A DNA stretch of 64,000 bases from Hydrolagus colliei (taxonomy: Eukaryota), in NCBI GenBank assembly GCA_035084275.1, contig CM068748.1:16182001-16246000 (forward strand), in the 5' to 3' direction. How positions within the stretch are numbered: the stretch's first letter is position 1; each line of letters begins with the position of its first letter. Below are positions 15,695 to 63,574 of this stretch, in pieces. The notes under the pieces are model-generated. The model saw only the letters and a program-made list of their open reading frames with translations. It did not search any database and had not been told where the DNA came from. The position numbers were made by a program, and so were the translations under genes.

Positions 15695-15825
15695 AAACAA
15701 AATGCAGAAATACTACAAATCTGAAATAAAAACAAAAGTCATTGGGAACACTCAGCAGGTCAGGCAGCATCAATGAAGAGAGGAAAGTGAGTTAACGTTT
15801 CAGGTTGATGACCTTACGTCAGAAT
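15695..15825 (-). mobile_element. Penelope-like terminal repeat fragment with degenerate hammerhead motif
   Basis: Homologous to the 45953-46058 and 61266-61510 copies. Minus strand reads CTGACGT-AAGGTCATCAACCT-GAAACGTT. Confidence 0.75.
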
Positions 15826-33047: not shown

Positions 33048-33135
33048 CTCTGTGATTGGAGGGATCCCGGTTTGCTTGCGGCAATGGGGTGTACTCCTGC
33101 GAGGCTGGTGTGCTGGAGCCAAAGCCACTGGAAGC
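33048..33135 (-). CDS. Internal coding exon (88 nt, phase 0 to 1), ASSGFGSSTPASQEYTPLPQANRDPSNHR; unidentified protein
   Basis: Acceptor ttgtttatcatgcag and consensus donor GAG|gtaagt. GC-rich island in AT-rich context; splices in frame to 32218-32344. Confidence 0.8.
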
Positions 33136-45000: not shown

Positions 45001-45952
45001 TAAAACCATGTACTTGCATGTAAGATCAGATGAGAGACAAGGGGAGATGAACAATGTGCTTTACCCCGCACCACTAGAGACTAATGACTGATGGGAGACA
45101 TGCATTTGTGACTCTTCAAAACCACTTTATCAGTTGAAAGATGAGTTAATGGGCTTATAGCAGCTCAACTGTGATGGAAAAGTTATTGAAAGAAATGGTT
45201 GCACAACATCCTTTGCATTTCCCTGTATTCAAGATGTGAAAGGAAAGTTCTGCTTAGTCGGGCTGGGAGAAGAAAGAATGTAAACAATAGAAACTGGGCT
45301 GGGGATATTATATTGTACTGAAATTTTCAAAGTCTTCAATCTATTTTCAAAAAGTATCTCAAGTATTGCTCTCAACTCACTGCAGGCTACAGGCAAATTA
45401 TTTCAGGATTAGCTGGTGCACAAAGAACAAATTAGTTCAAACACCTGAAATAAAATGGAGGTATGTGTCCTGCCTTTGCTCACTGCTTTTATACACCTAA
45501 GGGAATCCGTCAAACTGCAGAAAATACGAGAAGTCAACTTTTACACAATAAGTTATAGTTTACTATTGAAGCAAGCCCTTTTCACGTACATCAACTTGAC
45601 ATGTGGAGTTAATCCATCTATTTTACTGCCTTTCCACCTCTTAAATTGGGATGGATGCTAATCCAATGCTGAAGACACATTACTCAGTGGAATAAACCGT
45701 CTACAGTTCCAATATTACTGGTGTGTGTGTGTTGGGGGGAGTGGGGGGGGGATTAACATTGCATGCATTAAGAGTAGAAATTACAGGAACTGAGTCTCAG
45801 CTTCCACCAAAAGCCAAGGTAAACACACCTGGTTTCTGGTGCAGCACAAGTCCACACAAACTTCAAAGAGGCTGGTTTGAATTCCCTCTCTATACCAAAT
45901 TAGCCTATTTCATTCAAGGCACCCACCGCTGAATATGAATCAGAGACCTTTT

Positions 45953-46058
45953 CTGGAATAAAAACAGAAATAGCTGGGAACACTCAGCAGGTTCAGGCAG
46001 CACCTATGGAGAAAGTAAAGTGAGTCAACGTTTCGGGTCCACGACCCTTCGTCAGAAG
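45953..46058 (-). mobile_element. Penelope-like terminal repeat fragment carrying a hammerhead core
   Basis: aaaacagaaatagctgggaacactcagcagg...gagtcaacgtttcgggtccacgacccttcgtcag; homologous to three other copies in the window. Confidence 0.8.
46023..46058 (-). ncRNA. Minimal type I hammerhead ribozyme motif (core intact, stem I truncated)
   Basis: CUGACGA-A-GGGUC GUG GACCC-GAAA-CG-UU; stem I has only 2 bp. Confidence 0.6.
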
Positions 46059-59162: not shown

Positions 59163-59441
59163 TAATAATAATCATCATTCTTGCATTTGATACAGAGTTT
59201 TTCACGTCTTCTAGACCTCTCAAAGCACTTCACCAAATATACTGTGAAGTGAATTGACTGTATATTTGTTGGTGAAATGCACACAGCAGTTTCCCACAAA
59301 CAGTCGTGGATTTAAATGATCAAATTATTATTATTTTCTAGGTGTGATTGTTGCAAGGAAACTTGCCCAAGGTTTTGCTCTGCCAGGAATTGAACCCAGG
59401 TCTCTTGCTTGTAAGGCAAGCGCTCTAACCACTGAGCTACA
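59163..59441 (-). mobile_element. Full-length tRNA-derived Deu-domain SINE
   Basis: Head GTAGCTCAGTGGTTAGAGCGCTTGCCTTACAAGCAAGAGACCTGGGTTCAATTCC has intact A and B boxes; canonical tail. Confidence 0.93.
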
Positions 59442-59817: not shown

Positions 59818-59885
59818 AACAAAAATGCAAAATACTGCAGATGCTGGAAATCTGAAACAAAAACAGAAATCGCTGGGAACACCGG
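59818..59885 (-). mobile_element. Penelope-like terminal repeat fragment without hammerhead
   Basis: aaatactgcagatgctggaaatctgaaacaaaaacagaaatcgctgggaacac matches the start of the 61266 copy. Confidence 0.75.
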
Positions 59886-60909
59886 TCTTTCCACTTGATT
59901 TTGTTAATCGGATTAAGTACAATGTTAACACCAATTTAGATCTTAATTAATAGCATCTATTTGACCACCATTCCCACCCAGTCCAATGTAAAAATTACTC
60001 CAGGATCATCAACAGCAATAATCACACCCATCACAGGTTCCGTAAATGACAGGCAAAATCTCATCAGCCAGCAGGGAGAGCACTATCTTTGCTGTTCTGT
60101 CAGAATCACTTTGAAGGTACTTTGAAGTGTGTCCAGAATCTGTTTCCAAAAGCTGCTGATGAAATGTGTTGATCAGAATGAGAATGACTGTCGCACTCTT
60201 TGAAACTGACAGTGCTCTACCCTGGCTAGGATGGAAGAGAAGAGTTTTCATAGCAGTGCACCATCGTTCACTTGACTTTTCTCAGTAATTACTTTCTTAG
60301 CTGCATCACATCTGCCGGTGAAAGATGGAGCAGTATTTCTAGGAAGAGACTTTGAGATATTTTGTTGTACTCTTGTGGTGCTAAGAGTGCACAACCTAGA
60401 CATTCCCAAACTGGTGAACCTGAACTAAGGCTTGGCTGTTTTATACAGGAACAGAATCTGATTGTTTTTAAAATAAAGGATGATGTGCAGAGAATATGGT
60501 TATTTGACTCTGAGGATTAGCAGTCAGTCAGGGCCAATTTTCTTCATTGAGGCAAGAAGTTGCAATTGGCAACAGTTGACTATGGTCACATTGTGGGAAA
60601 ACCTCAACTCTTCTCAACTCATAGGATTGCTGATAGTTACATGAACGGAACAATTATGGCTTCACAGTCTGCATGCTGTTATTTCATTTTCTTCCATTTT
60701 CTTGAGCTAATTGTTCCAAATAAATATCTTCTTTCGCAAAATATTCTCGAATAACTCAAATGCATTGGAACAAACAGAATTATTTATTCCAGGAATCCGA
60801 TACTTTTTTCAAATTTACCAAGCAACACAAAGCAACACAAATTGCACTTTTTATACAGAGTGCATCAAAATATTTTGATTTGCAGCGCTCTTTGTAAAAT
60901 AAAAAATAT

Positions 60910-61092
60910 ATATATTGGTCAATTCAATCCATGACTGTTTGTGGGACACTGCTGTGCGCAATTGGCTGCCGTATTTCACCCATAAATATGCAGTCAATTC
61001 ACTTTACTGTATATTCTGGGGAGAATGTAGCATTTTGAGACATCTAGAAGATGTGAAAACCACTATATCACATGCAAAGATGACTATAATTA
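60910..61092 (+). mobile_element. Deu-domain SINE 3' half
   Basis: gactgtttgtgggacactgctgtgcgcaattggctgcc core followed by the tail. Confidence 0.9.
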
Positions 61093-61171
61093 TCAGAAAA
61101 ATGGTGCCATTGAAATGATACCATATGTACGTTTTGCTTCCCAGCTGCTGGAAAAGTGAGGAATAAAATAT

Positions 61172-61260
61172 AGTAATAATAATCTTTGCATTTAATATAG
61201 CGCTTTTCACAGGTATCACATTTATAAGTCGAGTACTCTGACCACTGAGCTATAGGACTC
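61172..61260 (-). mobile_element. Internally deleted SINE (tRNA head joined almost directly to tail)
   Basis: Minus strand: gagtcctatagctcagtggtcagagtac...gtgaaaagcgctatattaaatgcaaagattattattac. Confidence 0.75.
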
Positions 61261-61265
61261 CAAAT

Positions 61266-61510
61266 ATAAACAAAACACAAAATACCACAGATACTGGAAA
61301 TCTGAAACAAAAACAGAAGTCGCTAGGAAGACTCAGTGGGTTAGGCAGCATCTATGGAGAAAGGAAAGTGAGTCAACGTTTCGGATCCACGAGCATTCGT
61401 CAAATTTCAGTTCTGATGAAGGGTCCTGGACCCGAAATGTTGACTCACTTTCTTTTCTCCATAGATGCTGCCTGACCTGACAGCAGGGACTACTGCTTTT
61501 GTTTCAGAAA
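61266..61510. mobile_element. Inverted pair of Penelope-like terminal repeats
   Basis: Arms 61344-61404 and 61412-61472 are reverse complements (53/61 matches counted by eye), with outer ctgaaacaaaa / ttttgtttcag. Confidence 0.85.
61409..61445 (+). ncRNA. Minimal type I hammerhead ribozyme motif (Penelope-associated)
   Basis: Stem I AGUU/GACU, core CUGAUGA, extra A, stem II GGGUC-CUG-GACCC, GAAA, short stem III/loop, GUU triplet; predicted cleavage after 61441. Confidence 0.72.
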
Positions 61511-63574
61511 TAAAATAAGCTTTGTTGTAAAATGAAAAGTAAATTCTGGTCAAGCATGGAACCATTGAGAATGGGAACATCGTCTCATGATACCCTTTTC
61601 CCTTCTGCTGTTTTTCAAATGAAGCAATAAACCAAACATTAAACAAGCATAGTAACAGAACCATCAACTGAGCCCTTTTATTTAGGCTATTCATATTCCC
61701 TTACCTAAAAGTCAAATGCCTTTCACAATAAAATGGAAAAATCAATGCTCCGCCTACTGTCATGGATGAAGGAAAGGATCTAATTAGAAGTGGAGACTGA
61801 TGGAACAATCAGTATAACTCTTAATCCCAAACATAAGTACTGATAGCCCTGAGCCTCACACCATCCTTGCTTTGATTTTCATGTGAACAAGGCCTTATCT
61901 GAGAAACTTCAATTTGCATGACTTTGCTTGGAGGCAGCTCCCATGATATGTTAATTGCAGGGTGCTTAAGTACTAAAAGGTTAACATAAAATCCTTTGCA
62001 AACAAGCTAATAGTTTATGATAATTTTTTTTATTCTTGCCCTTTGTCAGTCTATCAATGGATTGCCTCTAGCTGCAGTTTTATCGAAGGGCTATAAAAAT
62101 ATAGTTTATACAAGTTCATTCATTCATAATTGATATTTAAATCACTTTCTCTAATTTAGCTATTCTGACCCACTAACAGTCTCCAAATTATAATGTAATT
62201 AAACCACCCTGTATTACAAAGAATTTTATTTCAGGACTAAATGGGCAAGTAAGCGAAAGAGCCTTCCTGTTCAAGAAGATCACTTCAGTGCTAAAATTGG
62301 CAAACTACAGAAGTATTACACACATTTTAAAGTTACTAAAACTATTATAGCATATTATGAACAGCCAACCACAGAATAATGCTGCACAAGATATATTTCT
62401 GACTCTCTTGCATTCCTACAAACCAATAATTTTCAGTGTTCAGAGAAGAAGGTGGTGCTAATCCAGTTAAAAGAATAATTGGGGAAAGGATTTTGAAGAA
62501 AATCACCCCTTCAGGTCCAAAGGTAATTATACAGTACATTGTTCTATTATGACAACTGCATTCCTTGTTTAGATACATGCAACAGGAAACGTGGAGAAAC
62601 AGAGAATCAGGTGGATTTGTGTGTGGAATGCCACAGTTTTCAGTCTGGTGGCACAGTGGAGCCTGACTACTGTAGTATCCAGTGCTAGAAATTAAACAAA
62701 TCCTATTGGTAATTACTGTAAAAGGAAGAGAGAGTGTGCAGTTTTAGTTGAAAGGCTCCATATGAATACAAGTTGTGCTCTTGTTCACACTGGAATTGCC
62801 TTTCCACAGTGAAGTGGAAAACTTCACTGACGAAGGTAAAACCGAATGAGTTCAAGTATTCTGAAAGTCTAACAATGATTTACTTCCTTCAAGCCTTCTT
62901 ACACATTTAATGCCAAGTTTATCTTCACATATGGGTGATGCAGAACAATTTCAATCCAATATGGCTCTGCATCACCTTGCCCTGCCACTTCCATCAACAA
63001 TCACTCCTTTTACATCGCTGACAGAGCCAGAGGTAAAGCGGGAACCAAAGAAACTGATTCAAAGTTAGGTTTGTGGCATAAATTCTCTGCCTGTTGAAAC
63101 CTTCCACAATTTTTGGCAAAGATCAGCATAGATCAGGGGTGTTAAACATAGCTTGCAGAGGCAGCTCAGTTCATCCATGTATAAAAACAAAATGGCTGGC
63201 AGTAACACAGATATTTTAAAGGTTGCTATTTCCAAAAGTAAAAGTGCCTCCCCAGACTGCACATTTCATTTATGTGTTGCTGTAAAGTGAATACAACACT
63301 GGAGAGGATTTATTTTGAATAGCAACATACAAAGAAACCCATCATCATGCTTAGGAGTATCCAACCAAACTGATGCAGACCATCTATACACTAGAATTCC
63401 TGTGAATTGGAATGCAGAGGGGAACGAAATCTAGGCACAGTAGATAACATATTAAATTTAATATAGGGTGATCAAAACTCGTGATATCTACCCTATTATT
63501 TAAGACTTATTAGACATTGTAATAGAATTACAACTTTTTGGTCACCCAGTAAGTATATATATTTATTTATTGTG

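Follow-up and report, generated by a model that had tools for sequence, protein, structure and literature searches.

What is an inverted pair of hammerhead ribozyme motifs doing in a vertebrate intron? The pair lies in a 64,000-nucleotide stretch of the Hydrolagus colliei genome (contig CM068748.1, positions 16,182,001 to 16,246,000; hereafter the window, whose own numbering we use). A first-pass annotation had described it as two reverse-complement arms of about 60 bp separated by 7 nt, one carrying a complete minimal hammerhead and the other a decayed one, and had proposed that transcripts would either fold into a long hairpin or self-cleave. We think it probable that a single old insertion, truncated at its 5' end, accounts for the site, and that it stems from an abundant endonuclease-positive Penelope-like element (PLE). 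In it, two copies of the element's hammerhead-bearing end stand head to head, likely because reverse transcriptase (RT) primed from both nicked target strands, and the ribozymes and hairpin are likely functionless passengers.

The foldback itself is real. A repeat finder placed the arms at 61339-61402 and 61414-61477 as a 64-nt inverted repeat that is 88% complementary, and the 149-nt foldback has a computed energy of -104.3 kcal/mol, compared with -39.2 +/- 3.8 for shuffled sequences (z -17.3; as good in 0 of 200 shuffles). Its dimensions differ from those first given: the arms are 64 nt, the repeat finder puts the gap at 11 nt, counting between aligned ends gives 6 nt, and the foldback sits at the core of a larger, 240-bp insertion (61268-61507), with an additional inverted match beyond the main arms (61301-61324 and 61485-61508). 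This insertion comprises a long arm on the minus strand (61268-61402), which is a PLE pseudo-LTR copy ending in a 34-nt tail that only this arm carries (61268-61301, minus strand); a 6-nt junction between the two heads (61403-61408); and a short, tail-less pseudo-LTR copy on the plus strand (61409-61507) with a small internal deletion near 61480. The inverted terminal repeats suspected at first are present, as head-to-head pseudo-LTRs.

Adjoining the long arm is an internally deleted tRNA-derived SINE (61171-61261, minus strand; weak tRNA match at 61171-61259) that resembles 59397-59439. Candidate copies of a target-site duplication, read by eye, lie at 61159-61170 and 61506-61517 (plus strand; 11 of 12 letters identical); this 12-bp candidate is short and AT-rich and requires assuming that the intervening SINE came later. 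A contig from a related organism aligns over 61520-61725, from just past the short arm, while no match to the arm is listed for its first 138 letters; this hints weakly that the related organism lacks the insertion or has it in another form.

The short arm opens with a minimal type I hammerhead motif (61409-61445, plus strand) that runs AGUU, CUGAUGA, an extra A, a 5-bp stem II with a 3-nt loop, GAAA and U17 at 61441, after which the cut is predicted. Every part of the minimal type I pattern (CUGANGA, stem II, GAAA, UH, stem I) is found on this arm. The minus arm, decayed as had been noticed, is without C3 (missing or cut off), has 3 of the 5 pairs in stem II and 2 of the 4 in stem I, and keeps its helix III palindrome. 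"Complete" nevertheless overstates the plus arm: its catalytic bases, stem II and predicted cut stand, but a CpG transition at 61438 destroys the helix III palindrome, and the helix III self-duplex that would enable dimers is computed at +0.2 kcal/mol vs -4.1 for the family majority. The Rfam hammerhead models, to which the first-pass annotation had pointed as a check, gave no match at the site or in an intact family copy, with E up to 10 or at the gathering score, so that the hammerhead call depends on the published minimal descriptor (PMC4209133, in its account of metazoan hammerheads); the motif, with its extra base after A9, fits this descriptor as first suggested. Matches to miRNA families in Rfam were set aside, as they fall far below the gathering score and reflect any long hairpin. 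The mismatches between the arms do cluster in the hammerhead part, at 7 of 8 rather than the 6 of 8 first counted, and this is what the family mutation spectrum would give (expected share 0.71, P = 0.27).

The element belongs to a large family. Searching the genome with it returned 3896 candidates, the best other copies being 81-88% alike, and three family patterns had 130, 496 and 1146 exact matches, with 0 for reversed controls. In 464 kb unselected for the family (20 spaced 10-kb stretches plus 264 kb around the site) we found 11 insertions other than the focal one, a density that corresponds to roughly 1-4 x 10^4 in the whole genome. The window itself holds three more on the minus strand: a single short arm with an intact hammerhead core (45952-46057), an older single long arm (15697-15824) and a 61-nt stub with the tail and without the hammerhead (59822-59882).

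The Penelope origin first proposed is borne out by copies that are longer than the focal one. Many extend upstream of the hammerhead into a common pyrimidine-rich stretch and then into GIY-YIG and RT remnants. One locus, L190, combines an inverted arm, a pseudo-LTR with hammerhead, the tail and a broken ORF whose pieces match, in the same order, an intact RT plus GIY-YIG protein of the same genome (E 4e-52); the broken ORFs of L123, L132, L160/L190 and L170 are collinear with this protein. The pseudo-LTR with hammerhead lies 5' of the ORF in L160/L190 (partially in L170) and 3' of it in most of L116-L170, the 3' end of L190 being lost. All family copies examined are broken and about 82-92% alike; no intact ORF was found for the family, and the GIY-YIG profile matched one of seven fragments, weakly. 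Their translations show a DKG motif, a CX2-5CxxC linker finger and two cysteines between GIY and YIG, features that define Neptune-type PLEs and are common to Nematis (PMC8557442, in its overview of PLE types); the DKG, linker zinc finger and GIY-YIG cysteines point to a parent of Neptune type. The focal element is a copy of this abundant, decayed endonuclease-positive PLE.

A subtelomeric PLE family recovered by the GIY-YIG search was rejected as the parent, since its 30 loci share no end with the focal element. This second PLE family is young (L031-L060, L091-L095; C38:25000-55000, C21:18683000-18703000 and other contig ends) and has an intact 783-aa RT plus GIY-YIG frame, repeated in tandem units that are almost identical and measure about 5.5-6.6 kb. 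These units lie near contig ends, interspersed with telomere-type hexamer repeats; a 485-aa frame without a Pfam family precedes the RT plus GIY-YIG frame, and a simple descriptor found no hammerhead in them. This young endonuclease-bearing PLE with its extra frame is apparently subtelomere-bound.

How do two ends come to lie head to head? We collected 150 anchored arms, numbering each from the start of hammerhead stem I (90 anchored on the hammerhead core and 60 on the 3' half, with 6 duplicates dropped); the anchors are exact patterns, and the sample is hence biased to young copies. Arm 3' ends are bimodal, at about 100-106 or 135-140, and the roughly 34 nt between them correspond to the optional PLE tail. 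Among the 58 arms with an adjacent inverted partner, 48 were scored as pairing a tailed with a tail-less arm, none is short-short, one is long-long and 9 were unscored; by inspection, the sole long-long case and 6 of the 9 unscored pairs are also long plus short, and 3 stay unscored. The unselected sample contains three other pairs, and one of them, L231, which has a target duplication, is short-short; so is L300. Both lie outside this scored table. The focal copy follows the common pattern, with its long arm on the minus and its short arm on the plus strand.

Target duplications, mostly of 13-14 bp and accompanied by microhomology, flank 26 of the 58 pairs, compared with 0-2 in eight shuffles. 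They also surround 14 of 86 arms without an adjacent partner, a count that has no shuffle comparison, and of these arms 6 are short and 8 long; that single arms with a duplication have either 3' end implies that both start sites prime. In 50 pairs the short arm reached further 5' in 24, the long arm in 12 and the two equally far in 14, so that neither arm is a subset of the other.

In vitro, the protein of a lizard PLE, PAc (Poseidon) of the green anole, cuts and extends both target strands and has two RT starts that bound the tail (PMC11167929, in its description of the reaction). Taken with our pairs, this suggests that each strand of the cut likely primes at a different site. The PLE protein would nick both target strands about 13 nt apart; one 3'-OH would use the inner start site and yield the tail-less arm, and the other would use the outer one and yield the tailed arm; both cDNAs would mostly extend over 105-140 nt, as far as a fixed RNA 5' end at the hammerhead 5' edge, or drop off sooner; and their 3' ends would be joined via microhomology or filler. 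The hammerhead was of use to the parent element and is decaying at the focal site. A more specific version, on which our judgement is evenly balanced, is that a PLE protein dimer, with one subunit for each start site bounding the tail, primes both strands of a staggered cut and mainly copies the first 105-140 nt of an RNA beginning at the hammerhead 5' edge, the palindromes being strong-stop-like cDNAs sealed head to head.

It is also conceivable, though we consider it unlikely, that the same PLE stump gained its second arm by self-priming, through fold-back of one cDNA or from an antisense template, and that the missing tail marks endonuclease resolution. Self-priming has been proposed in PMC3846280, and endonuclease resolution for the tail in PMC8557442, each in its discussion of insertion structure. 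Within pairs, the arms share subfamily letters at two sites (37 of 40 and 38 of 44 pairs), and junctions are enriched in stem II (15 vs 7.3 expected, P 0.008, for a window picked post hoc), as self-priming could produce. A fold-back copy is, however, expected to lie inside its template, and in the 24 of 50 pairs noted above the tail-less arm contains stretches, sometimes hundreds of bases long, that its tailed partner lacks, which favours two cDNAs, with the caveat that later asymmetric deletions at the palindrome centre could also yield arms of unequal reach. Single short arms moreover have duplications of their own, yet short-short pairs are rare.

That many copies look alike at 200-250 bp might suggest a non-autonomous, MITE- or SINE-like unit copied whole from a master, but this is very improbable, as junction position and filler differ in nearly every copy (gaps range from overlap to 66 nt), which means that the palindrome is not copied as a unit, and as either of the two arms can be the longer, arms and ORF-bearing copies form a graded series, ends are asymmetric, and duplications are about 13-14 bp with microhomology.

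Priming from both strands would produce such short arms if the copied RNA began near the hammerhead, and the arms do share a sharp 5' boundary. Position 5 is reached by 34 of the 55 arms that were anchored on the 3' half. Of those 34, 23 go no further than positions 1-5, where the stopping rate further 3' predicts 9%; in the core-anchored set the count for this interval is 65 of 89. There is no peak of 5' ends at the ribozyme cut site (9 vs 6.0 in positions 30-37, P 0.16, among 113 starts), nor an excess of copies beginning exactly there (3 vs 2.3 expected). By consensus motifs, the boundary looks like an initiator as well as a 3' splice site. Sequences like a 3' splice site, with a branch-point-like motif, a pyrimidine tract and CAG, coincide with the 5' boundary (arm positions -45 to 3) and also with the short 3' end (65-106, the latter being 61473-61507 in the window). 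Splicing could have set the boundary, given such a sequence there; it appears less likely, because 47 single arms have no common upstream exon and the target duplication adjoins arm position 2 in three copies. The Drosophila virilis element has an intron whose end falls at hammerhead helix I (PMC4209133) and which lies downstream of an internal promoter (PMC2377424), according to the sections of these papers on that element. The simplest reading of the boundary is a defined RNA 5' end, with transcription start, processing or an enzyme stop as candidate causes.

Several PLE arms lie in or beside SINE copies, and an identical target duplication recurs at more than one locus; it is possible that the PLE prefers SINE copies as targets. 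This tRNA-derived SINE is abundant (59167-59441, 60901-61093, 61171-61261 and many other places).

We now turn to whether the host could use the site. Three in-phase minus-strand exons (33048-33135 in the window, L235:5677-5907 and L241) appear to belong to a leucine-rich-repeat gene that spans the whole window. The exon at 33048-33135, which bounds the intron with the insertion, was located by a motif; it has AG/GT ends and splice phases that match the two exons outside the window. Pfam found no host exon in 84 window frames and gave a weak LRR_9 match for the upstream exon. As read from DNA, these exons place the insertion in a 77-kb intron of a minus-strand gene, which we presume to be LRMDA-like, in keeping with the intronic position first suggested. 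The last exons of a Slo-family calcium-activated potassium channel gene lie 30-60 kb before the window (L244, L246), on the plus strand and convergent with the host gene.

The plus-strand motif is antisense to this gene, and the pre-mRNA would carry the dead arm as its sense hammerhead. Whichever strand is transcribed, the antisense copy of the hammerhead precedes the hammerhead itself in the transcript. When stems I and II are imposed on the plus-strand RNA, the fold is 32.4 kcal/mol worse than the hairpin, and the computed probability of ribozyme pairing in context is 0, so a meaningful choice between two folds, as first envisaged, does not emerge. In two RNA runs from a single sample of another organism, reads matched the family as a whole, on both strands, and almost none covered the unique flanks, which makes the runs uninformative on transcription, editing or RNA ends at the locus.

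Nor do the copies bear out the genome-wide conservation and stem II covariation on which the first-pass annotation had staked the ribozyme. Among 163 arms, 95 hammerheads were unselected on the core; of these, 51 keep the core, 35 the core and stem II, and 18 the palindrome as well. Catalytic G8 is changed in 20 of the 95 and G12 in 23, compared with 22 and 25 for non-catalytic CpG bases. Stem II has 7 two-sided changes over its five pairs, with no covariation across copies, and purifying selection on catalytic bases is absent across these paralogous copies. Catalytic bases decay at the ordinary CpG rate, that is, neutrally. Because the majority sequence is intact, the parent element kept its ribozyme; the copies do not. 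The hairpins fare no better: arms of one insertion diverge by 9.1%, vs 10.5% between insertions, and have 6 changes in common over 1897 sites, and homogenisation of arms was sought and not seen. Arms that have drifted almost as far as unrelated ones indicate that hairpins are not maintained.

Could the host nonetheless have kept this one site as an intronic switch between double-stranded hairpin and self-cleavage? The plus arm does retain all catalytic bases and stem II, and the site is intronic. However, the 35 of 95 hammerheads with core and stem II do so by chance of age, and here the host strand has the dead arm, the hairpin leads by 32 kcal/mol, the palindrome is lost and arms are not kept alike. 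We give such a switch almost no credence, and nothing suggests host use of ribozyme or hairpin.

The architecture agrees with what is published on related elements, as far as the cited sections go. Endonuclease-positive PLE insertions, Pen2a_Av among others, have an inverted 5'-truncated pseudo-LTR, a tail and a target duplication (PMC3846280; overview in PMC8557442). The focal insertion shares their head-to-head pseudo-LTRs, heavy 5' truncation, flanking duplication and a tail of 30-40 bp that is often confined to one end; it differs in being reduced to two ends without an ORF, and its family differs in having duplications of about 13-14 rather than 8-10 bp and a pairing of tailed with tail-less arms that has been counted and is nearly strict. 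Like the minimal hammerheads of metazoan PLEs described in PMC4209133, the motif is type I, with an extra base between 9 and 10.1, G10.1-C11.1 and a palindromic 15.2-16.2 in the family, and occurs as thousands of dispersed single motifs; that source also reports hammerhead pairs on opposite strands, about 100-700 bp apart, in Schistosoma. Unlike those hammerheads, stem II here has 5 bp rather than 7-8, the focal copy has lost its palindrome, and activity is predicted from sequence. For PAc, hammerhead cleavage is unnecessary for insertion (PMC11167929), a further likeness; unlike our family, its ORF begins inside the hammerhead and its tail lies within the ORF, whereas the focal tail precedes the likely start codon and the focal parent has the Neptune/Nematis linker zinc finger. 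Non-LTR retrozymes are similarly non-coding, PLE-derived and furnished with a type I hammerhead (bioRxiv 10.64898/2026.07.22.740005, in its definition of them). They are head-to-tail tandem repeats with a hammerhead in each unit, whereas the focal arms are inverted, and a head-to-head pair cannot form a tandem dimer.

The literature already describes inverted pseudo-LTRs, one-sided tails, duplications and dispersed minimal hammerheads, and the focal locus is ordinary: thousands of such stumps are decaying, and this one is of little consequence. The rule that tailed pair with tail-less arms, and priming at two ends, were not found in the literature searched and may be in print. The parts of the PLE literature cited here leave undefined how inverted pseudo-LTRs and the one-sided tail arise. 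For this unsolved PLE step the family provides a natural record, and it adds a count that bears on the mechanism. Near-strict pairing of tailed with tail-less arms, together with the sharp 5' boundary, gives predictions that can be tested in the existing in vitro PLE system and, if true, two-site priming by a dimer would account for the inverted pseudo-LTR and the one-sided tail of PLEs.
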